Virus record (IMG/VR): IMGVR_UViG_3300037333_000013
Location: 32,001-96,000 of that record
DNA from: a virus
DNA length: 64,000 bases
Reading direction: 5' to 3' (one strand)
Position 1 is the stretch's first letter, and every line of letters begins with the position of its first letter. Under the pieces are notes generated by a model, which was given only the letters and a program-made list of their open reading frames with translations, ran no database searches and was not told the origin of the DNA. Below, piece after piece: positions 2,537 to 63,213 of the stretch. Position numbers and translations under genes: made by a program.

Positions 2537-2591
2537 TGTCTCTCCTGAAAAATTTAATGTTAGTAACCCTTGCAATCGATTACTACACTGA

Positions 2592-2600
2592 AATAATATA
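2592..2600 (-). promoter_or_regulatory. Early (virion RNAP) promoter TATATTATT
   Basis: One of 11 exact intergenic copies; resembles the phiKZ early consensus TATATTAC. Confidence 0.75.
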
Positions 2601-2720
2601 CAGATATAAAATTACTACTAGCGTACCTACTGGCACACTAGCATTGTAATCCGTAATAGAACGCAGACAAACACTGTGATTGCCGCTGCTCTATATGAAC
2701 GATGTATCTTTTCACTAAGG

Positions 2721-3059
2721 TTAAATACCGTCACATTTATCTCCTAATATTTTCTTAAATGCTTTCTTTGTCGCTTTCACTATACCACTATTAAATACTG
2801 TAATCAACTTCACACTTGCCAATGATGACAGTGAGTAGATGACGACCGCTGTTGTAGAGTGTGCATCAATCACAAACTTCTCTAATACAAATGGTACTAT
2901 CGTCAGTGCGATAAAGATTGATGAAAAAAAGATAGCCATATAATGGCTCATATTTCTTATATCAGTGTGGAATATCTGTGTAAATATTCCTATCAACACA
3001 GCGACACCACACTCGAACGTGTTGTAAAATTCCACGAACTCTTTTGTTGTAAATAACAT
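2721..3059 (-). CDS. Small membrane protein, holin-like
   Basis: 112 aa with about 3 hydrophobic segments and a basic C-terminal tail (KATKKAFKK). Confidence 0.5.
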   Translation of the reverse strand: MLFTTKEFVEFYNTFECGVAVLIGIFTQIFHTDIRNMSHYMAIFFSSIFIALTIVPFVLEKFVIDAHSTTAVVIYSLSSLASVKLITVFNSGIVKATKKAFKKILGDKCDGI

Positions 3060-3617
3060 CTATCCCCCAATAGTATCCTTTGATACCTCTATATGAAATG
3101 CATCATCTCTCAGTAGTGTGATTTTCTTTGTCACAATCTCTCCTGACACCGATGCAGTAAACTCAATTGAACTCCCAGGTCTCATTAATAGTAATGGTAA
3201 GTCATATGCGTCGTTCTCTATGTATACACTGATATTTGTGAGTTCCTTACAACCTGAAGTGAATGTATATGTCATTGCTTCTATATGATGAAACGGTGGT
3301 TCAAATAGACAATAGACACCTTCTTTATTCTCTGTGTTTCCTACAAAATAGACAGGTAACCCACGCACGTCCTTCACACTCTCTTTACCACGCTTGATAG
3401 GTATCAAACTGAATGATGAACCAAACAGTGTCACCGTTCTCTCTTTGTTAAATAATGCATCTTCATAGAGTGTATCTACCACACCTATCGATACACCAAA
3501 TGTACTCTCGTCACTGACATTATACTTAATGTTATAGTGCCTATTACCGTTTATGGTTGTTAACACAGCCTCTACGGGTTCGACACTATTGTCTCTCTTA
3601 ATCTTTCTGATAAACAT
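3060..3617 (-). CDS. Hypothetical protein
   Basis: 185 aa ORF with an AGAGG SD, coupled to the holin-like gene. Confidence 0.7.
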   Translation of the reverse strand: MFIRKIKRDNSVEPVEAVLTTINGNRHYNIKYNVSDESTFGVSIGVVDTLYEDALFNKERTVTLFGSSFSLIPIKRGKESVKDVRGLPVYFVGNTENKEGVYCLFEPPFHHIEAMTYTFTSGCKELTNISVYIENDAYDLPLLLMRPGSSIEFTASVSGEIVTKKITLLRDDAFHIEVSKDTIGG

Positions 3618-3692
3618 ATCAACCTCTTTTATTTATTTAAAAATTCACAAAAAATAGCCTCGTATTGAATGAACTTTAAGAAAGGAGTGATT

Positions 3693-4823
3693 ATGGGTAC
3701 CCCTTTAGGGATAGAAAGTAAAAGTGATTATACTGCTGGGTCTAGTGGTAAACTATTTGCTGGTGAATTTATGACGATGTTAGACAACATCAATACCTCT
3801 ATTGATAAGATACCTGGTTGGGAAAATATTGATAGTGACAAGCGTCTGTTGTTTGCTCTCTCTTCTGCATTGCACATTAATGGATTTACTGTCGGTGGAG
3901 ATGAGAATGACATTACATTAACCAGCAATGGATATGAACGGTTGTTGCTGAAGGATAAAGATACAGTATCTTTTGTAACACCACTTAGCAATACAGATGA
4001 AGTAACATTAACTATTGATTCGTTACGTTCTAGACCACTTGTCACTGATGATGGTATTGTTTTAACAAGTGGGTTCTTAAAAGAGAATCATATGCAGTAT
4101 GCTGTGTATGATGAAGAGAATGATGTCTTTCGTTTAATTAATACCAATGCTGATGCTAGTATGGTCGAAGAGAAGCTAGAAGAGGTAAAAGAGAGCTTAG
4201 AGTATCTCATTCTAGACAACAGGCTCACAGCAGGTATGAATGACAACAACATCATTGATAGAGTGAATGCATTGACTAATCTTGTGCATAGTATGGAAAC
4301 AAAGATAGAAGAACTCTTTGAAAAGAACACTATCTTAGAAGATGCAGTATCAAAACAGCTAGTCAACAACGATGGAACAATAGAGACATATGACGGAATC
4401 AAGTTGGTGTCTGGCGACTTTGCTGGTGTAGAAGGACCAACTGAGTATGTGAAACGATATGTTTCAAAATGGGGTGGTAGCACATTTACAACAAATACGA
4501 GACTCTTTACTATTAAAGAGAACGGAATACAAGTCAACCACGATGGTTACTATCGTGTACATATGAGACAACGTGTAAATAGCAATGGTGAGAATGGATA
4601 TGTCACTATCAGTATCGATGGTGATAGACGTAAGTTAGAAGATAGAGAAGATGGGTTATGGACACATGACCATAGTGATTATGTCAATAACTTTACATCA
4701 TCTATCTATATTGGAAAGTTATATAATGGTGAACTGATTTGTGGTGGATTTAACGAAGCGGAAGATGGCATATACTCAGATGCGGGATATGTTGGTATGT
4801 TGACAGTTGAGAGAATTAAGTAA
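3693..4823 (+). CDS. Tail fibre-like protein: coiled coil plus C-terminal C1q/TNF-like beta domain
   Basis: AAGGAG SD before ATG 3693; central heptad region; C-terminal GIQVNHDGYYRVH...GELI pattern. Confidence 0.55.
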   Translation: MGTPLGIESKSDYTAGSSGKLFAGEFMTMLDNINTSIDKIPGWENIDSDKRLLFALSSALHINGFTVGGDENDITLTSNGYERLLLKDKDTVSFVTPLSNTDEVTLTIDSLRSRPLVTDDGIVLTSGFLKENHMQYAVYDEENDVFRLINTNADASMVEEKLEEVKESLEYLILDNRLTAGMNDNNIIDRVNALTNLVHSMETKIEELFEKNTILEDAVSKQLVNNDGTIETYDGIKLVSGDFAGVEGPTEYVKRYVSKWGGSTFTTNTRLFTIKENGIQVNHDGYYRVHMRQRVNSNGENGYVTISIDGDRRKLEDREDGLWTHDHSDYVNNFTSSIYIGKLYNGELICGGFNEAEDGIYSDAGYVGMLTVERIK

Positions 4824-4835
4824 GAAAGGATAGAC

Positions 4836-6383
4836 ATGTTAATAGAAGAGTTAGCAGAGAAGATTGATAATGCATTGCAGTCTAGCAATGACATTGCACT
4901 GTTTTATAGAGATTTCTTCACAACAGATGGTGATGTGACATTCACTATGGTAAATGAAGATGGTGATGAAGTCAGTGAGACAGTGAGCAGTTACTTAAAA
5001 CTGAGTGGAGAACTGAAAACATTGATTAGTGATTCGTTCTCAGAGACTATCATGAGTAAAGTAACTGTGGATACTGGCGAACTAGATGAACAATTACGGT
5101 TAGGTACATCGCATGTAGTAAAGGTATTAACAGACCAAGGTGGTACGATTACAAGTAGTGATAGTTTTAATGTACACCACGCTGGAGAGACTGATAATGC
5201 TATCGAATGGGTCACAAACTACTACGATGCACGATACCCAGACTCTGACCTAAATGAGATTACTGCTGAAGATAAGATTCTCACCGCTGATGGAGAGATT
5301 ATTCTTAGACCTAATCTACAAGCTGATGATAGAACAAGTGATGGTGTAGAGATGTCTTTCTCTATGGAAGAAGTAAATCTATTAAGACAAATCATTAACA
5401 GCAAAGAGATTATCGTTGGAACTGAACAAGATAGGGAAGATGGAACATATAGTAGATTATATAAGAATGAGCTACAATTAAAATCTATCCACGAAGATAT
5501 TGGTAATGTGAATGCTGTTCTTAATATGCTTTATAATGGGGAATTACTAGAACTTAATATACTTGACGATGATAGAAATGCATTGGCTAGAGGAATTAAA
5601 TTATATAGCAACAAAGATATATTTCCGAAAATTGATAACTTTGATATACTGACAGCAAGAACCAGATATATATATGTGGATTCTGAGATTGGTGACGATA
5701 CAAATGAGGGAACAAGTCCGGATAGACCTAAGAAGACATTTATTGCTGGATGGAATGCATGTAGATATAGACACGATTGTGTACTTTATCTAGCGGAAGG
5801 TCAAGAGTTTGACGTTGATTCAAATATAGATGCTGGATATAATACACTTATCCGGGTAATTAGACGTGGGTCGACTGACGATGTTGATGACCCAAAACTA
5901 AAGTTTGGTGGTTATCGATACACATCTGGTGATGGGAATGATTATAGTGGTACTAAATATATAAGTGCAAGTTATGGAAGTTCTATTTCTATCGGACATA
6001 TTGAGTTAATACCACCAGGAAAGACGGATGACTTAGATTTCCGAGCGTGGGATTATCAATCTTCACTGATACTCGCATATGGTGCAATATTTATCTCTAT
6101 TAATAATTGTAGCTGTGATATAAGTGGACTAACTAATATTCAAGTGATTAAGCAAACTAAATACAGATCTATTTGTACATTCTCAATTTATGGTTCAGAT
6201 ATCACACTAGGGTCAGAATACTTCTTATACAATAGGTCAAATTCTCCAGTTGTTGCATATATTGACTATGGTAGATTTAGCAATGATGATGACTTAAAAG
6301 ACCAAATGTTTAAAAATGTAATTAGGGACGCTGATACTGGGATGCCGATAAATATCAATTCAAACTTTGATGTGACAAAATAG
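4836..6383 (+). CDS. Tail fibre / receptor-binding protein
   Basis: 515 aa. The N-terminal DGDVTFT..DG..V.V.SY segment is typical of tail fibres, and YIYVDSEIGDDTNEGTSPDRPKKT is typical of the start of beta-helix-like domains. Confidence 0.65.
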   Translation: MLIEELAEKIDNALQSSNDIALFYRDFFTTDGDVTFTMVNEDGDEVSETVSSYLKLSGELKTLISDSFSETIMSKVTVDTGELDEQLRLGTSHVVKVLTDQGGTITSSDSFNVHHAGETDNAIEWVTNYYDARYPDSDLNEITAEDKILTADGEIILRPNLQADDRTSDGVEMSFSMEEVNLLRQIINSKEIIVGTEQDREDGTYSRLYKNELQLKSIHEDIGNVNAVLNMLYNGELLELNILDDDRNALARGIKLYSNKDIFPKIDNFDILTARTRYIYVDSEIGDDTNEGTSPDRPKKTFIAGWNACRYRHDCVLYLAEGQEFDVDSNIDAGYNTLIRVIRRGSTDDVDDPKLKFGGYRYTSGDGNDYSGTKYISASYGSSISIGHIELIPPGKTDDLDFRAWDYQSSLILAYGAIFISINNCSCDISGLTNIQVIKQTKYRSICTFSIYGSDITLGSEYFLYNRSNSPVVAYIDYGRFSNDDDLKDQMFKNVIRDADTGMPININSNFDVTK

Positions 6384-6389
6384 GAGTAC

Positions 6390-12030: not shown

Positions 12031-12060
12031 TGTTATTCCTTATGATTTGTTATTTATTAA

Positions 12061-12118
12061 TCCGCATTACCGGTTACAGGACTATGAACACTTGAGTATT
12101 GCCTGACTATATACTCAA
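12061..12118 (-). ncRNA. Candidate structured leader RNA, class B, copy 1
   Basis: Hairpin with AGUCAGGC loop, then CAUAGUCCUGUA, then a CCG-GUAAUG-CGG hairpin; homologous to 28280-28338 with compensatory changes. Confidence 0.55.
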
Positions 12119-12128
12119 TTACTACTTT

Positions 12129-14528: not shown

Positions 14529-16397
14529 TTAGTCGTAGTTATCTAAAAATCCTTGTGGGTCTATGAGTACATCTAAGTTATGTGGCTCTTTCATCTCAGA
14601 CTCAATATTATGTATGGTAAACATATTTTGCAATGTCCCAGTAGAAGCCATTGATGTAAACCCACGATACTTTGTAATGGTCCGTATTGTACCAACCTTT
14701 GCATCTAGCCCTCTAGACATCATATAATTCGTCTTTGATGGGTCTTTTGACGCTAGTCCATAGATAACTGTGGCTAGGTGTGAAATGTGCAGACTTAGCT
14801 TTGTATTGTATAAGTCGAAGGTCTCATTTAGAATACGTTCTAGAGACTCAATCTTACCACCATTAATACTCTTACCAGAACCCATGAGTGATTCCAGGTT
14901 CTTTACAAGTTGGTTGTAGTTGAATACATGATTTGGTATGAATAAGAACGGTGTCTTGTAGTTCCAGTTTGTGATATCTACCTCATAACTATCACCATTC
15001 ATTGTCTTACCATATGTTACCATATGCTTTAAGAACTCGGATGTGAATGCCCCGGACTTGTTACCTGCACCTATCTTGAGTTCTAACTCTTCTATCTTCC
15101 CTTTGCTATCTTCTAACTTGATAACGACTGTTTTCACATTAGAAATTCTCTCTGGTGAGACTCTCATGACATCTCTCTCTGTTGTGATGTCCTTAAACCC
15201 ATATGACTCACGCACCTTAACAGAGAGTGTTACGCGTTTGTATTTCTTGTAGAACCTTGTAAATGATAAATTAATATCAGATACTTTAATGTATTTAGAT
15301 AAGTCTCGGCTCAATACGTAGATACCACCATCTGCTGATACGATGAAGTGCTTTGCAGAGAGCAATGACTGTACTGCTGGCTCATTTACCTTTGTACAAG
15401 ACCACTGCCCTAAGTTGAATGCTTTGTGCTTCGCATACCCATGCTTACCGAAACAAGCACTACATACTTCTTTATTGTCCTTAAGTGTACAAGACAATGC
15501 TGTTCTGACATATATTGTCTTTCCGAATAGATGTGTATCATCTCTCGTAATTGTCTTCCACTCGTCTTCAATGTTTATCTTATACATCTGACCTAACAAA
15601 TGTTGTATATCACCATCGTAGTAGTCCCCATGTTCAGTCTTACCTGGTGGTCTAACAAACCGTTGTATCCCAACCTTTGAACCACAGTCTGTATATTTTA
15701 GCTTCTGCACATACTCTGATATAATCTGCGTCGCCTTTGCAAACGACTCAGCATCTCTAATAGATTGTGACGAATAGAAGAGTGCAGTAACAGCACCACG
15801 AGAATCAATCGCTTCAGAAATCAAGTCCGTGTATCCCTCAGCATAGGACTCTGGAATAATCGTACTGAAGATATCGCCAGCAATGTCATTACCGAACCCT
15901 CTTAGTGCTAAACATTGGTCTCCTTGCTTTGTATTAAAAGACTCTGTCAAGTATCCTATACGTACTTGGTTATCTTCACGTATCTCCTCGTTAATGACAC
16001 GTTTTGTCTCTTGGTAAACTTTCTTTACATTTACTGGGTTAGGGTTATCCAATAGTTCTCGTTTTACCTTTCTAATATTCTCATTGTTTATAATTTCATA
16101 AATATCAGATGTTGGCATAAACGACATGTACTTATCGTGCCCGAATCCATACTTATTATACACATCATTAATGAGTTTAAATGTGAGTATGTTGAACTGT
16201 TCTAATGCTTGTTGAAGTTTATCTACTGGTATATAAATAAACATATCTTTGTAAACATCATTTAGTGTAGATACAAGTGTCTTCTTTCCGTAGAGACCAC
16301 TTTTATAATGGTCTCTAATATCGTAGCGTGTTGTTAATCCTACTGAACGTGCTATGTCATTTATCTTAGTGTTCAAGTCAACTTCAGTCTTTGTCAC
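14529..16397 (-). CDS. rpoC: Non-virion RNA polymerase beta' C-terminal subunit (phiKZ gp74-like)
   Basis: DCGS, C..(VCSACFG) zinc site and EPAVQSLLSAKH trigger-loop-like motif; gene order. Confidence 0.88.
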   Translation of the reverse strand: MTKTEVDLNTKINDIARSVGLTTRYDIRDHYKSGLYGKKTLVSTLNDVYKDMFIYIPVDKLQQALEQFNILTFKLINDVYNKYGFGHDKYMSFMPTSDIYEIINNENIRKVKRELLDNPNPVNVKKVYQETKRVINEEIREDNQVRIGYLTESFNTKQGDQCLALRGFGNDIAGDIFSTIIPESYAEGYTDLISEAIDSRGAVTALFYSSQSIRDAESFAKATQIISEYVQKLKYTDCGSKVGIQRFVRPPGKTEHGDYYDGDIQHLLGQMYKINIEDEWKTITRDDTHLFGKTIYVRTALSCTLKDNKEVCSACFGKHGYAKHKAFNLGQWSCTKVNEPAVQSLLSAKHFIVSADGGIYVLSRDLSKYIKVSDINLSFTRFYKKYKRVTLSVKVRESYGFKDITTERDVMRVSPERISNVKTVVIKLEDSKGKIEELELKIGAGNKSGAFTSEFLKHMVTYGKTMNGDSYEVDITNWNYKTPFLFIPNHVFNYNQLVKNLESLMGSGKSINGGKIESLERILNETFDLYNTKLSLHISHLATVIYGLASKDPSKTNYMMSRGLDAKVGTIRTITKYRGFTSMASTGTLQNMFTIHNIESEMKEPHNLDVLIDPQGFLDNYD

Positions 16398-18444
16398 GTA
16401 CTATTCCTTTTAAATTTAACCCTATTGATTGGGTAATCCCTTTGAGTGTCTTTAATACGACCTCTTCTCCAAACGGAATCTCTTTTCTGTTTACAATCTT
16501 ATCGATATTGGATGGCTTTGGTTCATCGAGTAGTTTCCTAGCAATGTGATACTTTGTCTTCATTGCTAAGGAACGGTCTCTCATCTCTGCCAATACAGCT
16601 GGGTGACAGTAGCTCGCCACAAATCGTGTCTCCGTCTCAGACCACTTCGTTGATTTCTCATTGATGACAGAACCTTCTTTTTGAGAAGTCGGTGGTGCAA
16701 CAGGTATCCCTAACGGATTAAGTCTAGAACTCGCAACAACCAACCCATCATCTGCAATCTTATTCAGAGAGAACATATATTGTGTATGCACATGTGTTGG
16801 CATGACACTCATCTCGTATCCTCCGTCGGATGTTGGTATCTTTACTACTTCCTCTTTAATAGCATACTCTGACTCACGTATCTTATCCATAATCACTGAG
16901 AACTTTGTCGCTTTACCATCTTCTCCTTTTACACCTAATGGTATTGGGTATGATATATGCGACTTATAGAACGACAGATACATCCTCGCACGTCGTTCCG
17001 GTTTTGCGTTTTCTAGTATCATTGCTTTCTCTGGATTCACTAACTTAAAGAGACCGATATACATTCTATCTAATTCAGATAGGTTGTCATTGACAAACTC
17101 TTTCACACTACCATTACGTGTGTTTATGAATGCTTTTATTTTCATATCTAAGACACGTACTGCTGTCCCAACATACCCCTCACCTAGATTTCCTAAATTC
17201 ATACGGTGCATATTTGAGTTCGATACAATCATGATATCTGCACGAATTCCGTTTGCATCGACAGGCATCATCTCTTTAGGGACAACAACAGAGATAACCC
17301 CTTTACTACCATGTGTTGTTGTTTGTTTAAATCCAACGTTTACCTTTCTTGTGTATTGCAACGTAATCTCTATGGTGAATGTAGGAACACGTTGTTTCTT
17401 CACTTGTCTGTCTACTTTAGGGTGATAAAGCTTTTGTAGTCTGACTAGTTCTACATATAGTTCATTCTCAAAGTCTACATCTCTATGTGTGTCACTGTAA
17501 TGTTTACATCTGTTGATGAAGTTTAGGTCAAAACTCTTCTTGTTCATCGCAAGCTCCATGAGCATGTCGTGTGCTACTGATAAAGTGTTTGTTTTCTTAC
17601 CGTCAGGGTTGTGTAGTACGGTGACATCAACAACACGTGCGGCTGGAGAGTCTACTTTATACAGATGGTCGTGTATATAGTCAACATAAGACAAATCTTT
17701 ATAACTACAATTTGATAAGAAGTTATCATCGTCCATCTCACGGGTTGCCATGACCAATGCACCACTACCAATAATATCTCCTACTCTAGGGAGTGGCTTA
17801 TATTCATTCTCATCTCCATGCACGTTTAATAGTACTGTTCTACCGTCAGAGTATGTCTTAAAGGACGAGAACAAGTCCATTTCAAACATATCTTGATAAG
17901 CATCAGAGATGTAGAATGCATCTTCTGCTACTTCTGATTTACTGGTATACATAATACTACAGTTCTTTCCGTATGCAAATATACCATCTTTCTCTGCATT
18001 TGTTGACGTTAAGTCTAAAGTGTCATAGATACCACCTTCTCTTAGGTTCATCATATCTTTCGTGAACTTCTGTTCGTAGCCGAACTTCTTATCTTTCTTC
18101 CCCCATCTATCTACTTTAATAAATCCTAGCTTGTTTTCATCTAGGTTCTTATAAATCACGTTGACATAGGTTGCATCTTCTATCTCGCCGTACGTACCTT
18201 TTCCTAGCTCAAAATATGGCAGTATTGCTATGACTTCGAACTTACACCTTATGCGATGATGATAGTTCATCTCTCTAAACTCTTTCTCTAGTGTTGAGAT
18301 GATATATGGTGTATCTGGATTCTTTATTGAAACAGCGTTACCCATTTGTGTAAAGAACATATACTTTCTACTAGACGAATCCATATTCGCTTGTGGACAA
18401 AGTGCTGTTGCACTATACGCTTTTTTATCTAACTCTACCTGCAT
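16384..18444 (-). CDS. rpoB: Non-virion RNA polymerase beta C-terminal subunit (phiKZ gp71-73-like)
   Basis: SSSR..M, EDA, GFKQTTTHGSKGVIS, ADI..RMNLG. Confidence 0.9.
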   Translation of the reverse strand: MQVELDKKAYSATALCPQANMDSSSRKYMFFTQMGNAVSIKNPDTPYIISTLEKEFREMNYHHRIRCKFEVIAILPYFELGKGTYGEIEDATYVNVIYKNLDENKLGFIKVDRWGKKDKKFGYEQKFTKDMMNLREGGIYDTLDLTSTNAEKDGIFAYGKNCSIMYTSKSEVAEDAFYISDAYQDMFEMDLFSSFKTYSDGRTVLLNVHGDENEYKPLPRVGDIIGSGALVMATREMDDDNFLSNCSYKDLSYVDYIHDHLYKVDSPAARVVDVTVLHNPDGKKTNTLSVAHDMLMELAMNKKSFDLNFINRCKHYSDTHRDVDFENELYVELVRLQKLYHPKVDRQVKKQRVPTFTIEITLQYTRKVNVGFKQTTTHGSKGVISVVVPKEMMPVDANGIRADIMIVSNSNMHRMNLGNLGEGYVGTAVRVLDMKIKAFINTRNGSVKEFVNDNLSELDRMYIGLFKLVNPEKAMILENAKPERRARMYLSFYKSHISYPIPLGVKGEDGKATKFSVIMDKIRESEYAIKEEVVKIPTSDGGYEMSVMPTHVHTQYMFSLNKIADDGLVVASSRLNPLGIPVAPPTSQKEGSVINEKSTKWSETETRFVASYCHPAVLAEMRDRSLAMKTKYHIARKLLDEPKPSNIDKIVNRKEIPFGEEVVLKTLKGITQSIGLNLKGIVRDKD

Positions 18445-18473: not shown

Positions 18474-18482
18474 AATAATATA
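18474..18482 (-). promoter_or_regulatory. Early promoter TATATTATT
   Basis: Exact motif upstream of nvRNAP beta C. Confidence 0.75.
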
Positions 18483-20217: not shown

Positions 20218-21717
20218 TTAGATATTTATAATTGCTTCTGATAATGTTTTTACATTATTAGACGCTGTTGTTTGCTCATCGTAGTTTGCTATGACAGGAC
20301 TCATCGTTGAGTATGCATAAGTACTGAACGACGATACTTTTGTCCCTATTCCACCTACTGTTACCTCTACTCTTGCACCCATCTTATTGATGAGTATCCC
20401 TAATCCAATATCTCTTCCTTGCGACACCAATGGGAATACAGTTGTCTGTACCATAGACACAATTGCTTGGAACACTGTTACTGGATTCATACCATCCCTT
20501 GAGAACATCAAATGGTCGTTAATGAGGTCTACTACAACATTATTTCCTATGTTCATATTGGATACTGTGATATGCATCTCTGTTATTGCAAACTTCTTCA
20601 TAATTGGTTGTAGTGCATCGACAAACATATGGGCAGTTGTATCTAATATAGACTCACCACTATTTTCATCAGCATCATATAGATTACTTGCTACATTCGC
20701 GTTCGTTTCAACCAGGAGCATATTGTCATCTACATATCTTTCACCATTGATACCTATCTCGTTGAATAGTTCTACCAATGTATTGTATGTAAAACTCGAT
20801 GTACTGTCAAACATACGCTTACTCAACCAGTTGAAAAACGTGTTCATTACCAATTTTGGCTCGCTCACGTACGTTGCCGCTCTCGCACCTACTCTGTATC
20901 TATCTTCTTCTTTCATACCGTAGTCGTGTGCTAACGATATATTTGTGAGTGTTGTACCTAGTGACTCGATAGGATTGTTATGTTCCGATTTACTCTCTAT
21001 TGGTTTTGTATCGATAGTTGATACCACAGCATTGTCACCATTCATTCCGGATGCCATAAAGTCTAAACTTAAGTCTGTTGGTCTGATACTATACAACTTC
21101 TCATGTTTTCCCATAATCTCCATCTTCTCATAATCAAACTCTATTGTCGTTCCGTATGGATTAGACAATACATTATATGCCTCACTAAGTACATTGTTCT
21201 GATAGATAGAGACAGAGTCAACGATAAACTCTGTATTTGGGTCCAGTGTTCCTTGTAGTGTCTTATCTGCACCATAAGTATACCCAGAGATGACAGTCTC
21301 TTCTACCGTACACCCCATACCTTGTATTGGCGACTCATTTGTTGTAACGAGCGTAAGCTCAAACGCATAGCGTTTTCCCCATCCACCTTTAATCATTGCC
21401 TCTGATGCGAGTGGTGAATATTGGACAATGTTTGAGTAATTGTTCGATAAATTCTCTACTGAAAACGCATTCTCTCTAAATCTACTAAAGTCCTCTTGCA
21501 GTCCTGCCTTTGACATATCATCTAGCACTAGGTGTTTACCTCTACGGTAGTTCTTCGTAGCAAGTGTCTCAGTAAGTTCGAAACTCTTGATTCTCATTGT
21601 TCTGAGTTTTATCAAGTGTAAGTCGAATGTCTCTTGCACCATTGCTGTTTGCTCATCTAGTGTTGGCTGTGCTTGTTGTGTCATTTGATTATTTAGTTCG
21701 TTTAAGTATGGGTTCAT
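20218..21717 (-). CDS. Imp1/PicA (phiKZ gp69)-like protein; putative phage-nucleus import factor
   Basis: 499 aa immediately after the gp68-like gene; GGW..RY.F.L, ISGYT and RPTD motifs. Confidence 0.65.
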   Translation of the reverse strand: MNPYLNELNNQMTQQAQPTLDEQTAMVQETFDLHLIKLRTMRIKSFELTETLATKNYRRGKHLVLDDMSKAGLQEDFSRFRENAFSVENLSNNYSNIVQYSPLASEAMIKGGWGKRYAFELTLVTTNESPIQGMGCTVEETVISGYTYGADKTLQGTLDPNTEFIVDSVSIYQNNVLSEAYNVLSNPYGTTIEFDYEKMEIMGKHEKLYSIRPTDLSLDFMASGMNGDNAVVSTIDTKPIESKSEHNNPIESLGTTLTNISLAHDYGMKEEDRYRVGARAATYVSEPKLVMNTFFNWLSKRMFDSTSSFTYNTLVELFNEIGINGERYVDDNMLLVETNANVASNLYDADENSGESILDTTAHMFVDALQPIMKKFAITEMHITVSNMNIGNNVVVDLINDHLMFSRDGMNPVTVFQAIVSMVQTTVFPLVSQGRDIGLGILINKMGARVEVTVGGIGTKVSSFSTYAYSTMSPVIANYDEQTTASNNVKTLSEAIINI

Positions 21718-23228
21718 TATATTTCCTTTATGTGTTTGATATATCTGGCGAAGTCATTTCGCACATCTGGTGTTTGTCCCATATAGTCTTCTTGTACGTC
21801 TCTATATGGTTCTTCTAGTAGGTATGTATAGTGACCCAAGTTAATAGAGTCTGTCATCGCATTGATGACCTCTGTTATCTTGTCATCTTTACTCTTCTTT
21901 ACATATACTCTATACTCATTCGATAGCTCTTCTACTAGCTCTCTCTTTACAGAATATAATCGTATCGGCTTTGTAATTCTACCTTTACCTATCGTATATG
22001 TCGTATCCACTGACATCAACATATATTTTGCCATCGGTGCATGACCATTCTCTATTGCGTAAGCAGCAAACACAACAGCCATATTTACAACTTGTTCCCT
22101 CTCTAGTACAGGATAAGCTAATGGACTATCGTACGGTAATCCTAATATACGTTTTGTCATAGTGAGTTTTAATAAATTCACAGTGAACGGATGTAAGATA
22201 TGTGTACTGTCAAACATTGGTTCAGCCATCTTCAAGAATTTCTCAACAAGAGACATATCTTTTATGCCGAAGTCTTTTGCTAGTCTTGTTATATCACGAT
22301 ACTGTTTACGCATCACCTCGACTTTACCAGGGCTATATGGTGTTGCTTGTCTATATGTCTCAAAGATAGACTGTTCACTATCAGCATCACCAGTAGAAGA
22401 TGGTCCTTTCACAGTAAACTTATGCTCTGATTTCTTATTGCTGTTGAAGATGTTAGACACCAAGTAGTACATTCCACCAATGATGTTGCTATGTGATGGG
22501 GGGTTCTTAATGGTTGCATAAGTTGGGAATGTCTTGAATAAAAGCGTCCCTAACACATACTCTGTCACCTCTGTTGAACCAATGTTCTCTACCATAGTAG
22601 AGACTCGCATTCTATTCTCTTCTCCACCAGACGTCTTATCAATGTGTGATGTGATGAAACGTTCTAGTCTCAACATTGGCTCAGTCTGTGTGAACTCTTT
22701 ATACCCTCTCTTTAGGATAATGAACAATGCTTCGTGTGTGTATTGCTTAATCAACATATCCGTTAGTGGTATCAGCACTTTAGAAGCTATGACGATTGTC
22801 ATTAAGTCTATAAACTCACTCTTTAAATAAGTCTGGTCTCTAGACTCAATAGCGTTCTTCTCGTTATCCATATTGAATGTCTCTTTTAGTCTATCTGGTG
22901 CAGTCATTCCCTCCCTGAGTATAAACTCTTTAATCACAGTGATATCCATATAAGATAGTAACTCTCTCATATAGTATCCTGCTTTTTGTATATCAGCACC
23001 TTTGGATAACTCTTTCCACATCTGCTTGTAGACAGTCTCTATTCTATCGTTCAATTTATAGTGTTCTACAAACCGATTAAATAGTTCCAGCATCTCTGGA
23101 TTCTTTAGTAGTTTACTCTGGCTCTTTGCTGTAAATGAAGCGATAGAGAACAATGTTTCTGGATTATCGTTCAGATACGCCATATGTGAACTGTTCTCCC
23201 TTCCTAAAGCTAGTGTTATCAAATTCAC
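21717..23228 (-). CDS. nvRNAP promoter-specificity (sigma-like) subunit, phiKZ gp68-like
   Basis: RDQTYLKSEFIDL and SIFETYRQ....SPG match recalled gp68 motifs (DQTYLK.DY..L, SF.E.......PG); 503 aa; gene order. Confidence 0.82.
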   Translation of the reverse strand: MNLITLALGRENSSHMAYLNDNPETLFSIASFTAKSQSKLLKNPEMLELFNRFVEHYKLNDRIETVYKQMWKELSKGADIQKAGYYMRELLSYMDITVIKEFILREGMTAPDRLKETFNMDNEKNAIESRDQTYLKSEFIDLMTIVIASKVLIPLTDMLIKQYTHEALFIILKRGYKEFTQTEPMLRLERFITSHIDKTSGGEENRMRVSTMVENIGSTEVTEYVLGTLLFKTFPTYATIKNPPSHSNIIGGMYYLVSNIFNSNKKSEHKFTVKGPSSTGDADSEQSIFETYRQATPYSPGKVEVMRKQYRDITRLAKDFGIKDMSLVEKFLKMAEPMFDSTHILHPFTVNLLKLTMTKRILGLPYDSPLAYPVLEREQVVNMAVVFAAYAIENGHAPMAKYMLMSVDTTYTIGKGRITKPIRLYSVKRELVEELSNEYRVYVKKSKDDKITEVINAMTDSINLGHYTYLLEEPYRDVQEDYMGQTPDVRNDFARYIKHIKEI

Positions 23229-23281
23229 ATTTTCTCCTTTCTGAATTCGTTAGTTCTATTAGCTACTTAGAACTACACCAA

Positions 23282-23290
23282 AATAATATA
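23282..23290 (-). promoter_or_regulatory. Early promoter TATATTATT
   Basis: Exact motif upstream of the gp68-like gene. Confidence 0.75.
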
Positions 23291-28249: not shown

Positions 28250-28279
28250 AATTTATTCCTTTATTATATTAAATATTAT

Positions 28280-28338
28280 TCTGCATTACCAGATACAGGT
28301 CTATGTCTTCATACTATAATGCCTGACTATTATAGTAT
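28280..28338 (-). ncRNA. Candidate structured leader RNA, class B, copy 2
   Basis: 10-bp stem with AGUCAGGC loop, CAUAGACCUGUA, UCUG-GUAAUG-CAGA hairpin. Confidence 0.55.
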
Positions 28339-28342
28339 TAGT

Positions 28343-28426
28343 AATTCAATTACACCATAATAATATATAGGTAAAAAAAAAAGGCATACACAATGTCATA
28401 TGACATTGTGTATTCTATCACTTCTT
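28343..28426. repeat. Stop-terminator-early promoter cassette, copy 1 (about 83 bp)
   Basis: Nearly identical to 43178-43259; differs only in A-run length and one substitution. Confidence 0.9.
28359..28367 (-). promoter_or_regulatory. Early promoter TATATTATT
   Basis: Exact motif inside the repeated cassette. Confidence 0.75.
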
Positions 28427-28852: not shown

Positions 28853-28898
28853 TACGTATTTTTGTTAAGTATTTCTACCGCAGCTGTTTATACATATC

Positions 28899-28907
28899 AA
28901 TAATATA
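28899..28907 (-). promoter_or_regulatory. Early promoter TATATTATT
   Basis: Exact motif. Confidence 0.7.
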
Positions 28908-43114: not shown

Positions 43115-43177
43115 AATTTCTCCTTTATTATTAAGTGGGTTATGAAGCCCATAATGTTAGCTTCTACGAAGCACAGC

Positions 43178-43259
43178 AATTCAATTACACCATAATAATA
43201 TATAGGTAAAAAAAAGGCATACACAATGTCATATGACATTGTGTATTCTTTCACTTCTT
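43178..43259. repeat. Stop-terminator-early promoter cassette, copy 2
   Basis: Near-identical to 28343-28426. Confidence 0.9.
43194..43202 (-). promoter_or_regulatory. Early promoter TATATTATT
   Basis: Exact motif inside the repeated cassette. Confidence 0.75.
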
Positions 43260-59335: not shown

Positions 59336-59972
59336 AGTTTACACCATCGAATATAAATATGTTTTCATCTGTTATAATATATACTCTACCAGACACATCT
59401 TCAACACACGCCCTCACTATCGTACCTAACATACTATTTAACTTCTTCAGTCGCATCTCGTCATACTTAAGAACCACGTCTACCATAGTCATCCCTACAA
59501 TGATGAGTCCATTGCATACATCTATTGATGATATCTTCGATGGATTCAAGTTCTTGTGGAATGAGTCGTCGTCATACTTAACGAATGCGTTCGTATAAAT
59601 CAATATACTAGACGCTTGTACATTCAAGTTGCATGCTAGTGAAGATTTACGTTTTATGATTGCACCATTAATATTTGCAACCGATTCTAAAGTATCAAAG
59701 TCATAGTGTAACTTACACTCCACTGTGTCTTTGATATCAAGATACATCAATGTCTCTAGTCTATTGTATACAGCTTGTGTGTACGTTATATTATTCATAA
59801 GTACAACAACGTAGTATACACCGTAAGACGTTATAACTGTTATGAGAGGACATCCTACGATATCCATGTCTATCTCTAATTCTTTACCTCGTAGTATATG
59901 TTCATCATCTGATGTAATGATGATGATACAATCCTCGTTTGTTATTATTTCCTCAATGATATTTTTACCCAT
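59325..59972 (-). CDS. Hypothetical protein
   Basis: ATG 59972 with a GAGGA SD. Confidence 0.6.
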   Translation of the reverse strand: MGKNIIEEIITNEDCIIIITSDDEHILRGKELEIDMDIVGCPLITVITSYGVYYVVVLMNNITYTQAVYNRLETLMYLDIKDTVECKLHYDFDTLESVANINGAIIKRKSSLACNLNVQASSILIYTNAFVKYDDDSFHKNLNPSKISSIDVCNGLIIVGMTMVDVVLKYDEMRLKKLNSMLGTIVRACVEDVSGRVYIITDENIFIFDGVNYAD

Positions 59973-60200
59973 TTCAATCCTCTTTTTGTTTTTTTTTATT
60001 ATGCATGTTGTCAATTGCTTTAAATGTTGATGATACGACAGACTTTATTATCCACTATCTCATCAACTCTAGTGGCATTAACTTTGTAATGATTAAGTCA
60101 TCTCTTTCAATCGCTTTACCATTATATGTCAGTTCACCTATCAACTCATCTATCTTGTACTCTTTATCGACTACATAGAGCTTATCATAGCCACGTACTT

Positions 60201-60593
60201 TTATACCGTATATAACATATACTCCCTAGCCATATTACCTATTGTGAACTCCATCGTTGACGTATCTATATCACTTACGAAGCATACCAGATTATAGAAG
60301 TTCGCGTATGTTAATTTTAAAAAGATTGTTTTATCTTCACTATCATACTCTTTATCAAAGTATCTCATTACTTCATCATATGGTCTAGCTTCGATATCAT
60401 GCACCTTCATCATATCCACATACTCATTGTAGATAAAACGTTTTAACGCATCGTTAATACCTTCTACTGATAAATTCATATCGCTGCTTAGTGATAGACT
60501 TGGCAAGTTTGTTTCGTCACTATTTGTTTTTGACACACTTCTGTTTGTTAGCTTACTTAAAAGCGAAGCTGTTTGCTTTGTATATTTCTTCAT
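60201..60593 (-). CDS. Hypothetical protein, possibly frameshifted at the 3' end
   Basis: 130 aa with an AAGGA SD; coding-like sequence continues in another frame. Confidence 0.55.
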   Translation of the reverse strand: MKKYTKQTASLLSKLTNRSVSKTNSDETNLPSLSLSSDMNLSVEGINDALKRFIYNEYVDMMKVHDIEARPYDEVMRYFDKEYDSEDKTIFLKLTYANFYNLVCFVSDIDTSTMEFTIGNMAREYMLYTV

Positions 60594-60608
60594 CTCTATT
60601 ATCCTTTA

Positions 60609-60878
60609 TTACATTATTTCCATATCATCTACTCTGAGTAATCCTAGCTTAGATACCAAAGACTCTGGTAGTTCTACTTCTGTTGTGATGAGTACATCTT
60701 GTGGGTCATTATCACCAGATGGGTAGTTAAACATAGTATCTAAGTCTGTATCACCTATTACTTCTAAGATGGCATCTTCTAGCTCATCTACCTTAATTGC
60801 GAATAACTCATCATACTTTAATAGTTCATCATTTACTGGGGTTGTTTGTGTTGTTATTGTCTTCTTATATGTTGCCAT
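60609..60878 (-). CDS. Small acidic early protein
   Basis: ATG 60878 with an AAGGA SD, behind a promoter and class A leader. Confidence 0.7.
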   Translation of the reverse strand: MATYKKTITTQTTPVNDELLKYDELFAIKVDELEDAILEVIGDTDLDTMFNYPSGDNDPQDVLITTEVELPESLVSKLGLLRVDDMEIM

Positions 60879-60943
60879 ATTGTTTCCTTTATACTTTGGT
60901 TTGTTAGATAGTTTAGATACTATCACTCTGGTTTAGTCGTACT

Positions 60944-60952
60944 AATAATATA
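60944..60952 (-). promoter_or_regulatory. Early promoter TATATTATT
   Basis: Exact motif. Confidence 0.75.
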
Positions 60953-61745
60953 CCAGTATACTTTACTTATTCTCTAGGTAGAGATAAAAGATACTAGAGA
61001 GTATAGTCTAAGGACTATACTCTATGTGATACTAAAGGATGTACATTACAGAGTAATGTACTATTATTAAGAGAAAGGAAAAGGGTTCTCTCGGATAGGG
61101 GCTACGCCCCTATCCTCACTCTCCTAAAAGGAAAGAGAAGTATTGTTTATTATTATTGCCTGCTCCCACCACTCCTAGCCTATGCCCACCCCTAAAAAAT
61201 ATAGATAGTTATATATACTCTATCCGATAGTGTATTACGTTAGTAATACTACCTTTAGTATAAACAACTATGTTCTATCTACATCTTCCTGGGTCCCGTC
61301 TGGTATATAGTGTAGTATGTGTTTGGTTCATATAATAGAGAGAAGAGAATATAAGTAAGAGTATACTCTCTTAGAGAGAGAATAAGAGTAGAGTATGGTA
61401 ATGAAGAATGTATAGTTTGAATAAAAGAAAAAGAGTAGTATATGAGAGAGATAGAGTATACAGTAATCAGATATGAGGAATAAGGTAAAGAAGAGAAGAG
61501 TATGAGAGAAAGTATACTAGAGAAAGAGAATAGGATAAAGAGTAGTAGTATGAACCACTGTAAGTGTCTGAAGAAAATGGAAAAAATAAATAGGTATGGT
61601 ATCACTCACCACCTAGATTCTATCTAGATAGTGAATGTATGTCTATGTTTAATGTCACCAAGTATCAATACGTATGTACTGTTTACCTAATGGTGTATGT
61701 ATCTCTCTAACATGATAACCATGCTTACAAATATCTGACTCTCAG

Positions 61746-62348
61746 TTACTTCTCAAGAAGTTCTTTTTTCATGTGTATGTAGTGGTGATTTATTCTATAT
61801 AAGATAGATATAACCACACCATTATGAGTAGATGTGGATAGTGTCTCGTATTGCTCATTTTCAATATCTCCGAATAGAAAGTAATCTGAAAACATTCCGA
61901 TAGTACATATCGGAGTGAGCTCATCTGTGAATGAAACGATACTAAATTCTAGATTTGGTCTCCTTACTAGTATGTAATCACCATCAACTATCATTGTACT
62001 ATTGTTTGGTAGGCGATTGAAAAGGTTGGATATGAACTTATTCTGATTAATCCTATCTACATACTCCGTATGCATAGTAAGACATTCGTCAATATCGTTC
62101 AACAATAACATGATAAACACAACATACATGAGTCTTTTACCTACTATCCCATACGACAACATCTTTGTATTCCCAAAGTCTACTCTTTCCTCTGTCATAA
62201 TATATCTGATACCATCATGTATGAACTGTCTATGGTTAATACCTAACTCCTCACATAATGTAGAAAAGCGTTTATACTCGTTATCTGTTTTGTATTGCAT
62301 GGTGATATTACCAATGCACTCTCTATGATTTGTTTTGTAAATATACAT
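61746..62348 (-). CDS. Hypothetical protein
   Basis: 200 aa, AAGGA SD. Confidence 0.6.
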   Translation of the reverse strand: MYIYKTNHRECIGNITMQYKTDNEYKRFSTLCEELGINHRQFIHDGIRYIMTEERVDFGNTKMLSYGIVGKRLMYVVFIMLLLNDIDECLTMHTEYVDRINQNKFISNLFNRLPNNSTMIVDGDYILVRRPNLEFSIVSFTDELTPICTIGMFSDYFLFGDIENEQYETLSTSTHNGVVISILYRINHHYIHMKKELLEK

Positions 62349-62360
62349 CTTCTTCCTTTA

Positions 62361-62636
62361 CTATTTATTGTATGGGTCTATCTCTAATAGACGTTTGTTT
62401 AACTCCCTGAACATTGATTGCTCTGCAAGTGGGAGTAGTGATAGGTCAGTATCTTTGATACTGTTGTGTATTGTTGTCTCTAGACGTATTGTCTCATATG
62501 TCTGTCTGACTGGAGAATCTGGATGATACAGTGATTTCTTTGTATCGATGAGTTTCCATAAGTTAGACATTATGACATCGTATACAAAGTTTGTATCTGT
62601 CTTCTTAACCAGTAGGTCATCTAGTAGTTCTAGCAT
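62361..62636 (-). CDS. Early hypothetical protein
   Basis: 91 aa behind a promoter and class A leader. Confidence 0.65.
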   Translation of the reverse strand: MLELLDDLLVKKTDTNFVYDVIMSNLWKLIDTKKSLYHPDSPVRQTYETIRLETTIHNSIKDTDLSLLPLAEQSMFRELNKRLLEIDPYNK

Positions 62637-62694
62637 TAATATTCCTTCAATAATGTTAGCTTAGTATGTAAACACAGCATTTCAATTACACCGT

Positions 62695-62703
62695 AATAAT
62701 ATA
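62695..62703 (-). promoter_or_regulatory. Early promoter TATATTATT
   Basis: Exact motif. Confidence 0.75.
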
Positions 62704-62719
62704 TATAAGTAGTTTGGTA

Positions 62720-63154
62720 CTAAATATAATATTTCCTTAATTCTGGTGTCCTACTTAAATACCTCTTTGGTACATATAATGCATTTTTATGCACTTTATC
62801 AAATACAGCTACTGCAACACAAAGTCCATTATCTAAGAACATACGAAAGTTAGATATAATACAAACTGTAAATAGGTCTAGTGAGCTTTCTCCAACCTTT
62901 ATCCTAGTTACCTTATTCTTGTAACAATCAATGACTTTATCTAAACTATCGATAAATCTCTTCGATTCTTTATAAGACATTTGTGGCAATATGAAATCAA
63001 AGTCAAAACACTTGTTATCTGTATACTGTATTTCATAAGCAAGTTTTCCCATACGTCTAGCAACAAAGATAGCCTTGTGTATTTCGTTTCTATCCATTAG
63101 GTTATTATATCTTCTTATTAGAGCTACCATATCGTCGTTATCTTCGTATATCAT
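62720..63154 (-). CDS. Early hypothetical protein
   Basis: 144 aa, AAGGAG SD, behind a promoter and class A leader. Confidence 0.65.
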   Translation of the reverse strand: MIYEDNDDMVALIRRYNNLMDRNEIHKAIFVARRMGKLAYEIQYTDNKCFDFDFILPQMSYKESKRFIDSLDKVIDCYKNKVTRIKVGESSLDLFTVCIISNFRMFLDNGLCVAVAVFDKVHKNALYVPKRYLSRTPELRKYYI

Positions 63155-63213
63155 TTCTACTCCTTTTATTATTTATTTTCTGTTAGCATAATGCACTCTA
63201 GTGTAGTCGTATG

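Follow-up and report, generated by a model that had tools for sequence, protein, structure and literature searches.

Many early messages of this uncultured giant phage carry small hairpins in their 5' leaders that are real and absent from catalogues. A sequence-only reading had grouped seven minus-strand loci of the window (the whole 64,000-nucleotide stretch of DNA that was analysed) as a single "Class A" leader, and all seven were found as described between promoter and SD. However, "Class A" is a composite of two different elements: two loci carry 5'-terminal hairpins with a palindromic loop (type (a)), and five carry a small internal hairpin that belongs to a repeated cassette (type (b/c)). 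In both types, pairing is kept through changed stem sequences. Sequence comparisons support the hairpins as RNA-level, sense-strand folds of early-transcript 5' leaders. As a whole explanation, two distinct cis-acting leader folds on early messages stand at about an even chance.

At each locus, a TATATTATT promoter lies directly 5' and an AAGGAG-type ribosome site with a start codon lies 3'. The genome (164,667 bp) contains 29 promoter-profile sites, 29/29 on the minus strand, and in the profile R-T-G is invariant at +12 to +14, counted from the motif. Eleven of the 29 sites fall in the window, and the element follows 7 of these 11. Short early leaders have only 11-15 nt from R-T-G to the ribosome site. 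In AR9, 41 mapped early starts have the geometry TATATTAT-(6N)-G (PMC5312081 and its Table S2), while in phiKZ and phiR1-37 transcription starts 6 nt past their promoter consensus (PMC7598289). We infer that the messages of the seven loci begin at promoters of the phage virion-polymerase type (TATATTAT-N6-G), with the following cores and predicted starts.

2592..2600, minus strand: early promoter core TATATTATT, profile score 30.7, AR9-like start geometry; predicted start at G 2586, the G of R-T-G, 6 nt past TATATTAT
23282..23290, minus strand: early promoter core, profile score 29.0; predicted start at G 23276
28899..28907, minus strand: early promoter core from the profile scan; predicted start at G 28893
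43194..43202, minus strand: early promoter core of the top-scoring subclass, profile score 37.5
43208-43215 and 43219-43246, minus strand: U-run and 13-bp terminator hairpin, respectively, preceding the core at 43194..43202
60944..60952, minus strand: early promoter core from the profile scan; predicted start at G 60938
62695..62703, minus strand: early promoter core from the profile scan; predicted start at G 62689
63214..63222, minus strand: early promoter core from the profile scan; predicted start at G 63208

At the two type (a) loci, an 8-bp hairpin begins at +2 of the predicted transcript. Its 9-nt loop consists of two purines, a self-complementary 6-mer and one purine.

2561..2585, minus strand: type (a) hairpin, UAGUAAUC / GGUUACUA, 8 bp with one U-G; loop GA-UUGCAA-G, 9 nt, self-complementary 6-mer at 2570-2575
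23251..23275, minus strand: type (a) hairpin, UAGUUCUA / UAGAACUA, 8 bp; loop AG-UAGCUA-A, 9 nt, palindrome at 23260-23265

The first hairpin (-7.0 kcal/mol, z = -3.05) lies upstream of a 326-aa gene (1556-2536). The second heads an operon whose first gene encodes 503 aa (21717-23228), and it has orthologous hairpins in phage ii (L001:9951-9977) and phage iii (L024:2955-2979). Hairpins had been proposed at 2558-2588 and 23248-23278 and are present there, but with stems of 8 bp rather than 5. Pairing between the UAG of 'GUGUAG' and the CUA of 'CUAAC' makes the bulge that had been suggested unnecessary at these two loci; more generally, flanks pairing with a bulged A or UA are unsupported by covariation.

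Across four type (a) sequences, three of which are orthologues of one another, 44/44 cells are paired and both sides change in 8 of 11 pairs. All three pairs of the loop palindrome change on both sides (UAGCUA, CGAUCG, UUGCAA), and none of 500 shuffles matched this alignment. The purines flanking the palindrome (RR...R) are kept in 4/4 copies. The predicted homodimer reaches -21.5 to -25.8 kcal/mol, compared with -10.6 to -14.0 for two monomers. Genome-wide, palindromic 9-nt-loop hairpins occur at chance frequency, with no enrichment. Type (a) may cap the 5' end of its message and could pair loop-to-loop with a second copy of that message.

At the other five loci, a hairpin of 3-6 bp (HP1) starts at +15/+17 of the leader, is closed by G-C or G-U, and is followed by UAA(C). 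In the (b) form, HP1 comes after a 5'-terminal hairpin, HP0, which pairs with the conserved start sequence. Type (b/c) belongs to a terminator-promoter-leader cassette of ~70-100 nt that recurs about ten times and has been homogenized by gene conversion. At least five further copies lie outside the window (genome 12498, 19536, 97244, 15782 and ~118.9 kb).

28868..28879, minus strand: HP1, GGUA-GAAA-UACU, 4 bp with G-U as the closing pair, GNRA tetraloop; then UAACA
43176..43188, minus strand: HP0, 5'-terminal from +1, GUAAU-UGA-AUUGC
43160..43172, minus strand: HP1, GCUUC-GUA-GAAGC, then UAACAUUAU; -4.6 kcal/mol
43137..43150, minus strand: HP2, GGG-CUUCAUAA-CCC
60907..60924, minus strand: HP1, GAUAGU-AUCUAA-ACUAUC, 6 bp; GACUAAACCAGAGU before, UAACA after
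62659..62673, minus strand: HP1, GUUUA-CAUAC-UAAGC, 5 bp with one U-G; then UAACAUUAU
63186..63194, minus strand: marginal HP1, GCA-UUA-UGC, 3 bp; then UAACAG

The strength of these folds varies. HP1 at 60907..60924 has -5.4 kcal/mol (z = -7.6), and phage ii has an identical stem at L004:5710-5740 with loop AUAA and flank UAAU. HP1 at 28868..28879 has -1.3 kcal/mol (z = -3.05). The hairpins at 62659..62673 (weak, and not the minimum-energy fold at 37 C) and 63186..63194 (-0.8 kcal/mol, no better than shuffles) are present but marginal when taken alone; a leader related to the latter in phage ii (L017:6297) has GC-UUCG-GC. HP2 keeps its loop on an altered stem in two other places, the genome 19536 paralogue and phage ii (L004:1675).

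In the outer four pairs of HP1, 37/37 cells are paired and both sides change in 3 of 4 pairs, and the paired fraction or covariation score was reached by 0/500 shuffles. Among 16 elements from three phages, an element's own arms pair over a mean of 4.8 bp, compared with 2.0 bp when arms are swapped; these copy counts are inflated by paralogy and gene conversion and represent about three independent lineages from one sampling context. Half of the stems (8/16) depend on a G-U pair, which is possible on the sense strand only. Loops range from 3 to 9 nt with neither size nor sequence conserved; of eight four-base loops, three are GAAA or UUCG, two of them on the shortest stems (4 and 2 bp). HP1 energies at 37 C run from -0.8 to -5.9 kcal/mol, with two copies no more stable than their shuffles.

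The element is concentrated behind early promoters. Early leaders, 2,001 nt in total, contain CTAAC 10 times where chance predicts 1.6 (~6-fold), and upstream of 141 non-early genes it is not enriched (6 seen vs ~10 expected). A hairpin (at least 4 bp, G-C closed) followed by TAAC is found 17 times on the minus strand and 10 times on the plus strand; genome-wide this is no enrichment over Markov shuffles (~11 per strand). Of the 17 minus-strand cases, 8 lie 37-45 nt from a promoter motif, where ~0.13 would be expected. Among 17 leaders chosen by their 5' flank alone, 11 show a hairpin of 5 bp or more that begins flush with the flank G (shuffle p = 0.064 per leader). Of the 34 leaders with 25 nt or more, 18 form a hairpin of 5 bp or longer that begins between +1 and +3, compared with a shuffle expectation of 17%. 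A covariance model, the check that had been proposed, gave 13 genome matches, 10 of them behind promoters and one previously unlisted, and no Rfam family matches the hairpin leaders.

We favor two distinct leader folds over a sequence tag that is universal and recognized by one protein. The folds would keep 5'-end-dependent RNases away from the message start and hold the A-rich ribosome-site region open, and together these effects could tune the stability or translation of accessory early genes. That the main role is exerted in cis and by shape alone is a more tentative proposal, to which we give somewhat less than an even chance. HP1 is weak at 37 C and would therefore be a poor nuclease barrier, and at 15-17 nt from the 5' end it is unable to cap that end itself. 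In addition, 14 of 16 copies retain the closing G-C and UAA(C) despite drift in stems and loops. This exceeds what shape alone would need and hints at a factor that reads the flanks.

Such a factor is central to the strongest alternative, in which G-hairpin-CUAAC is a sequence tag recognized by one factor of the phage or host. Candidates would be an antiterminator, a factor for export or localization, a regulator of translation, or an endoribonuclease that flags early messages for shut-off or processing. The enrichment of CTAAC in early leaders only, the retained closing G-C and 3' UAA, and the narrow band, 36-45 nt from the promoter motif, that contains the 3' end of the hairpin fit this idea, and hairpins this weak would make a better protein site than nuclease barrier. 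We nevertheless consider it unlikely. The sequence-only reading had proposed a phage-wide tag, but the element lies behind only about 12 of 30 early promoters (~40%), 60% of early operons are without it, and it is missing from the RNA-polymerase-gene leaders at 18482 and 56483, which are unstructured and span 13 nt. YUAAC does not hold as a constant flank either: in two relatives, leaders that are orthologous or related have CAAC, CUAAU, CUUAC, UUAAA, UUAAU or CUAUU in place of CUAAC. In type (a), the CUA is base-paired within the stem, and the phage ii orthologue lacks CUAAC altogether. Nor is GYG one common 5' flank, as this flank varies by subfamily. At 2558-2588 and 23248-23278, the 'GUG' of GUGUAG is the promoter's conserved R-T-G and differs from the 'GCUGUG' flank, whereas the 'UGC' of 'UGCUGUG' comes from the 3' arm of HP0 at 43176..43188. 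The unconserved size and sequence of the loops also argue against a tag. Together, the ~40% coverage, the bare polymerase genes and the unkept CUAAC make a universal tag unlikely.

It is less probable still that the hairpins have no RNA function and are passengers in a duplicated, recombining promoter cassette. Paralogues are identical over ~70 nt of the cassette. The near-identical strain L015 has GCCUA-ACGA-UAGGC in place of the 43160-43172 hairpin, with the 12-nt hairpin top replaced by that of the genome 19536 paralogue. On this view, seeming compensation would come from copying of whole hairpins or from template-switch correction of quasi-palindromes. The family forms about three descent groups, and several hairpins are thermodynamically marginal. 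However, conversion moves hairpins but does not give rise to nine or more distinct stems, each fully paired. The sense-strand-only G-U pairs required by half of the stems, and the GNRA or UUCG loops on some of the shortest, also speak against this reading. The hairpins persist at equivalent leaders of phages with 29-69% identical proteins, where the surrounding leader has diverged, and template-switch correction would erase the RR/R asymmetry and U-G pairs of type (a).

We give similarly little credence to the 5' part of the (b) leader as a landing site for a putative trans-acting early small RNA at genome 15969 (minus strand). HP1 would mark the end of the duplex and stack on it, and the resulting longer helix would block translation or attract a double-strand RNase, so that some of the early genes are switched off. 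A large internal loop of this RNA contains a 30-nt stretch that is antisense to the generic leader, includes an anti-ribosome-site run, and is predicted to be largely unpaired in its own fold. Six leaders, that of 43202 among them, can form 11-16 contiguous pairs with it at their 5' ends, and 13 bp stop exactly one base before HP1 (shuffling p ≤ 0.005). Yet the match may be an inverted relic of the promoter-leader cassette, and families (a) and (c) lack such complementarity. It also covers Class B leaders and so leaves HP1 and UAAC unexplained. Finally, a nascent hairpin at ~+20 to +30 that pauses or modifies the virion RNA polymerase in a put/nut manner would fit the promoter-proximal, narrow distance band and the restriction to transcripts attributed to that polymerase, but it is improbable given that the equivalent phage ii hairpin ends ~10 nt farther from the motif (offset 42 vs 24-33 here), that no conserved two-stem put-like fold or boxB-like loop is seen, and that 60% of early operons manage without it.

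The two leader folds can be compared with several known systems. HK022 put and lambda nut are likewise cis-acting RNAs just past early promoters, but they have conserved loops or a defined two-stem fold, whereas stems and loops vary here. They are present at every operon they control, and put/nut-type Rfam families do not match these leaders. With AR9 and phiKZ, the phage shares promoter core and start geometry (TATATTAT-N6-G in AR9; TATATTAC-N5-TG in phiKZ). The view that no such element had been described for phiKZ-like phages agrees with the phiKZ, 201phi2-1 and AR9 transcriptome papers examined, in which no equivalent turned up. Among early leaders, 9 from AR9 and 8 from phiKZ were inspected; they are short or lack structure, and neither G-hairpin-UAAC nor a DIS-like hairpin occurs in them. 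Short RNAs derived from 5' UTRs are described for phiKZ and 201phi2-1, and an uncharacterized motif is noted for the early 5' UTRs of AR9 (PMC5312081).

In T4-type phages, many small accessory early genes are preceded by copies of the PeSL (promoter-early stem-loop) cassette, a short composite of terminator hairpin and early promoter at which recombination occurs (PMC4122927). Similarly, terminator, U-run and promoter are repeated here, and a hairpin has been exchanged between paralogous copies. PeSL promoters are of the host sigma-70 type, whereas these are of the phage-polymerase type (TATATTAT-N6-G), and the PeSL stem-loop is the upstream terminator, whereas the hairpins here lie downstream, within the transcribed leader. 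Stem-loops at the 5' terminus can stabilize mRNA, as in ompA-type leaders of E. coli and 5' stabilizers of Bacillus, and a hairpin at +1 or +2 is known to block 5'-end-dependent decay. Type (a) and HP0 resemble these in starting at +1 or +2 of the predicted transcript; HP1 differs in its weakness and its distance from the 5' end.

The kissing-loop hairpin of the HIV-1 dimerization initiation site (DIS) has a loop of nine bases, with a self-complementary six flanked by unpaired purines, two 5' and one 3' (PMC2175338). Type (a), and only type (a), is likewise a 5' untranslated hairpin with an identical nine-base loop layout. The two do not share common descent. The DIS sits in a packaged RNA genome, whereas type (a) sits at the very 5' end of a DNA-phage mRNA, and its palindromes are A/U-rich (UAGCUA, UUGCAA). 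We know of no reason for an mRNA to dimerize. For type (a), an extended-duplex dimer like that of the DIS is predicted to be stable.

The window comes from a single 164,667-bp contig (36% G+C; bases 32001-96000). Among its products are subunits of split multisubunit RNA polymerases (at 14529-18444, with matches to PHROG 3015 and 3295, RNA polymerase beta), a capsid protein of the phiKZ type and a divergent DNA polymerase, and we therefore regard the phage as phiKZ/AR9-like. Near and distant nucleotide searches of a phage collection returned no match to this genome, scans of viral contigs by protein and by pattern found nothing, and the major capsid protein, used as a homologue query, returned only itself. 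Protein searches yielded two relatives from the same sample set. Phage ii (106-kb contig, 27% G+C) has an orthologue of a 503-aa protein of this phage (61% identical) and a DNA polymerase that is 69% identical. Phage iii (164.8-kb contig) is more distant, at 29% and 45%, respectively.

The sequence TATATTATT occurs 31 times in the genome, 29 times on the minus strand. A profile made from these sites consists of a U-rich stretch, a nine-base core, three free bases, a near-invariant R-T-G and then T-A. When the genome was scanned with this profile, 29 sites were found, all on the minus strand and all ahead of genes, with 11 inside the window. Early promoters of the AR9/phiKZ virion RNA polymerase type are defined by an AT-rich core, TATATTAT, centred near -10, and transcription that starts 6 nt further on, at a conserved G; here, the 29 sites read TATATTATT-nnn-R-T-G, and split RNA polymerases are encoded. 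The 41 mapped early starts of AR9 follow TATATTAT-(6N)-G (tatattat-N6-G), with the G as +1 (PMC5312081, Table S2), and transcripts of phiKZ and phiR1-37 start 6 nt after their respective consensus (PMC5312081; PMC7598289). The spacing in phiKZ's own early promoters is that of this phage. Because this start geometry is analogous, we infer that the +1 of early transcripts is the G of R-T-G. The distance from R-T-G to the ribosome site, only 11-15 nt in short leaders, supports this placement. All of the leader hairpins lie downstream of the inferred +1 and would therefore be transcribed. The same promoter is also used in phages ii and iii.

A sequence-only reading of this DNA had proposed one element, a variable stem-loop between GYG and YUAAC flanks, at seven early leaders. 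All seven sequences are present on the minus strand of the window as it wrote them. The element itself is a composite. The loci at 2558 and 23248 differ from the other five in hairpin position and loop, and the GUGUAG taken for their 5' flank is the promoter's own start region. In the other five, a small internal hairpin (HP1) begins at +15 or +17 from the inferred start. The HP1 leaders form two subfamilies, one of which opens with a further hairpin (HP0), and the UGC of the UGCUGUG flank comes from the 3' arm of HP0.

Hairpin-bearing early leaders, by hairpin span (type (a)), promoter (window, minus strand) or genome position.
2561-2585 and 23251-23275 (window, minus strand): type (a), 5'-terminal hairpin.
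43202, 62703 and 28907 (window, minus strand); 12498, 19536, 97244, 15782 and ~118.9 kb (genome, outside the window): (b) subfamily, leader opens with HP0.
5' end of the (b) leaders, from the predicted +1: HP0, GUAAU-UGA-AUUGC.
60952 and 63222 (window, minus strand): (c) subfamily, 5' segment different from that of (b) and unpaired.

Early leaders contain CTAAC 10 times against an expectation of 1.6, a six-fold enrichment that is not seen upstream of 141 other genes. This lack of enrichment ahead of non-early genes led us to reject the idea that CUAAC belongs to a second promoter of the middle or late kind. A hairpin followed by CTAAC occurs at chance level genome-wide. Of the 17 minus-strand cases, 8 lie 37-45 nt behind a promoter, where 0.13 are expected. 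The link between these elements and early promoters is real. A genome scan with a covariance model built from ten copies, a short model of low specificity, pointed the same way, with 13 matches, all on the minus strand, 10 of them behind promoters. One new match lies behind a near-consensus TATATCATT at genome ~118.9 kb, and three weak ones fall in coding sequence. At 60542-60570 of the window (minus strand), a hairpin with CUAACA scores 21 bits to the model just inside the start of a 130-aa ORF (60201-60593). No promoter lies ahead of it, and the match is due either to chance or to a copy of the element inside the ORF. Consistent with the supposition that such elements had not been described, they have no match in Rfam 15 at gathering thresholds, and none appears at the leaders at E up to 1, where the lone match in the window is an unrelated snoRNA model elsewhere.

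We compared HP1 among the three phages. When leaders were picked by their 5' flank alone, 11 of 17 had a hairpin of at least 5 bp beginning exactly at the flank G (shuffle probability 0.064 per leader). Over 16 elements, the arms of HP1 form a mean of 4.8 bp with their own partner versus 2.0 bp when arms are swapped between elements. In a MAFFT alignment, pairing holds in all 37 cells of the four outer base pairs, three of which change on both sides; none of 500 shuffles reached the observed paired fraction or covariation score, and slid controls were 8-60% paired. Stem levels 2, 3 and 5 vary among A-U, C-G, U-A and G-C, and half of the stems require a G-U pair, which is possible on the sense strand only. 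The loops are 3-9 nt long and varied in sequence; three of the eight four-base loops are GAAA or UUCG, and two of these three cap the shortest stems. These sequence comparisons indicate that HP1 is a selected structure. Weighing against this is the weakness of single hairpins (-0.8 to -5.9 kcal/mol), two of which are no better than shuffles. A mini-ORF running from GUG to UAA across HP1 was rejected, as stem and loop lengths fit the frame in one of five copies checked, and so was a ribozyme or riboswitch core, given conservation limited to the flanks and no Rfam match.

Phage ii has (b)- and (c)-type leaders whose stems are different or identical and whose 3' flanks are CAAC, CUAAU, CUUAC or UUAAA, and the (c)-like leaders of phage iii carry UUAAU. 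What these leaders keep is the hairpin and a UAA on its 3' side. The CUAAC flank, taken earlier as the constant part, is not, and nor is the proposed pairing between the two flanks. Among eight metagenome pattern matches, four (L013, L016, L019 and L020) were due to chance. In both relatives, the (c)-type hairpin has UAGGUG or AGAGGUG as its 5' flank (L021:7254, L021:7886, L017:6297 and L004:5677). This purine run looks like a ribosome site but lies far upstream of the actual one, and it is reminiscent of the Shine-Dalgarno-like stabiliser elements of low-GC bacteria.

The type (a) hairpins at 2558 and 23248 begin at +2 and have a 9-nt loop; pairing of UAG with the CUA of CUAAC brings their stem to 8 bp. 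Their loops are GA-UUGCAA-G and AG-UAGCUA-A, in which six self-complementary bases are preceded by two purines and followed by one. Ahead of the orthologous 503-aa gene, the leader carries AA-UAGCUA-A on a different stem in phage ii and AA-CGAUCG-A on yet another stem in phage iii. Across the four sequences, stem and palindrome are paired in 44 of 44 cells, both partners have changed in 8 of the 11 pairs (the three of the palindrome among them), and 0 of 500 shuffles matched this pairing and covariation. The HIV-1 dimerisation site (DIS) likewise has an apical loop of nine bases centred on six self-complementary ones, as do all four type (a) elements, and its definition places unpaired purines around the palindrome, two 5' and one 3' (PMC2175338); type (a) has GA..G, AG..A, AA..A and AA..A. 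At the level of sequence, then, type (a) has the architecture of the HIV-1 site.

A DIS-type hairpin forms a loop-loop dimer in solution; for type (a), cofolding predicts homodimers, as an extended duplex, to be 10-12 kcal/mol better than two monomers. It is possible, if rather unlikely in our estimate, that type (a) hairpins pair early messages head-to-head through the self-complementary loop, as in retroviral genomes. Caution is called for: type (a) comprises only four sequences; DIS-like hairpins occur at chance frequency genome-wide, with no enrichment; more distant orthologues of the 503-aa gene (L025, L026) have other promoters and lack the hairpin; and at the position expected for the gene of promoter 2600, phage ii has a non-homologous gene with no promoter. 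If true, type (a) would give bacteriophage mRNAs their first RNA-dimerisation signal, and loop-loop pairing would be a new kind of regulation for them. The helix of ~22 bp that would result at the 5' end could control translation, shield that end or offer a double-strand RNase a site that times the operon starting with the 503-aa gene. We rejected a DNA operator bound by a dimeric protein, since within one phage the two loci have different inner arms and palindromes, U-G pairs are present and the RR/R asymmetry does not vary. On the plus strand at 63627-63650 of the window, a perfect 10-bp hairpin between convergent genes, probably a bidirectional terminator, also contains UAGCUA, as does the loop at 23260-23265.

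The strongest promoters have ~70 nt in common, comprising an upstream terminator stem base, a U-run, the core, HP0 and the HP1 flanks, and most high-scoring promoters have a hairpin and U-run directly upstream. We observed that the terminators at 43208-43246 of the window and upstream of most strong promoters combine a common stem base (AUACAC...GUGUAU) and U-run with variable tops, the same design of conserved base and free top as HP1. In a contig of a near-identical strain (L015:994-1022), the 12-nt HP1 top of window 43151-43178 (43160-43172) has given way in full to the hairpin that the paralogue at genome 19536 carries; the flanks are unchanged, and strain contigs and window are otherwise nearly identical over ~230 aligned nt. 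Therefore, paralogous leaders exchange short patches. The paralogue itself differs from its strain counterpart in L014 by three substitutions within 19 nt, and together these changes show that the hairpin region turns over faster than its surroundings.

The elements had been proposed as a phage-wide tag on early mRNAs. They are not phage-wide: HP1 or type (a) is found at only ~12 of 30 early promoters, and the leaders of the RNA polymerase genes (18482 and 56483), 13 nt long and unstructured, have neither. Genes downstream of the elements are mostly small and without a family match. Among 34 longer leaders, 18 have a hairpin of at least 5 bp starting from +1 to +3, versus 17% expected. Taken together, the restriction to ~12 of 30 promoters, the unstructured polymerase leaders, the small accessory genes and the excess of 5'-terminal hairpins favour shape-dependent, cis-acting leader modules over a universal tag. 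Such modules would cap the 5' end of accessory early messages and would keep the A-rich ribosome-site region open. The main rival is that a flank-reading factor recognises the elements, and conservation of the closing pair and UAA(C) argues for it.

To our knowledge, little is known of post-transcriptional control of the first messages in nucleus-forming and related giant phages. The elements are compact RNAs (10-30 nt) that go with a defined class of promoter and occur in naturally compensated variants. Should they govern the stability or translation of messages, phage engineering would gain useful parts, and the travelling of accessory early genes as promoter-leader cassettes would be explained.

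Other structures were noticed in early transcripts. A third hairpin, HP2 (GGG-CUUCAUAA-CCC; window 43137-43150, minus strand), lies 3' of HP1 in three leaders; its loop is conserved and its stem changes, to GGUC/GCC in a paralogue and GGUUU/AAACC in phage ii. Longer 'Class B' leaders (window 12040-12125 and 28260-28355, minus strand; further copies at genome 5355, 7419 and 117123 and at L001:4845 in phage ii) have HP0 and then a variable stem; its loop, AGUCAGGCA, is conserved and able to pair with a CCUG segment, likewise conserved, further downstream. They have no match in Rfam. Outside the window, genome 15820-15969 (L007:15820-15969, minus strand) is a stand-alone putative early transcript with no ORF and a predicted 13-bp stem around a large loop. 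About 30 nt of this loop are antisense to the generic early leader, including an anti-ribosome-site run, and a count of contiguous pairing gave 11-16 pairs with the 5' ends of six leaders. Judged from this complementarity, the RNA might repress some of the early genes in trans, or it might be the relic of a cassette in inverted orientation.

Neither an HP1-type nor a type (a) element was seen in the 9 AR9 and 8 phiKZ early leaders inspected, and published transcriptome maps of phiKZ, 201phi2-1 and AR9 report promoters, terminators and short 5'-UTR-derived RNAs without a conserved leader fold like these. A 5'-terminal stabiliser stem-loop places its hairpin within a few nt of the 5' end and prolongs the half-life of the mRNA; relative to the inferred start, type (a) begins at +2, HP0 at +1 and HP1 at +15 or +17. 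Every early operon under nut or put control carries a conserved loop or a two-stem fold, whereas here the loops are 3-9 nt and varied, and the element is found at ~12 of 30 promoters. The PeSL cassettes of T4-type phages (PMC4122927), which the cassette described here resembles in its patch exchange, are repeated intergenic units of a terminator stem-loop and early promoter, and such units are present here too. However, the PeSL promoter is of the host sigma-70 type, while that of this phage is the phage-specific TATATTAT-N6-G with no -35 element, and, unlike in PeSL, the hairpins sit inside the leader. PeSLs lie at boundaries of gene gain, loss and swap between close relatives; here, the exchange seen is of a 12-nt hairpin between paralogous leaders.
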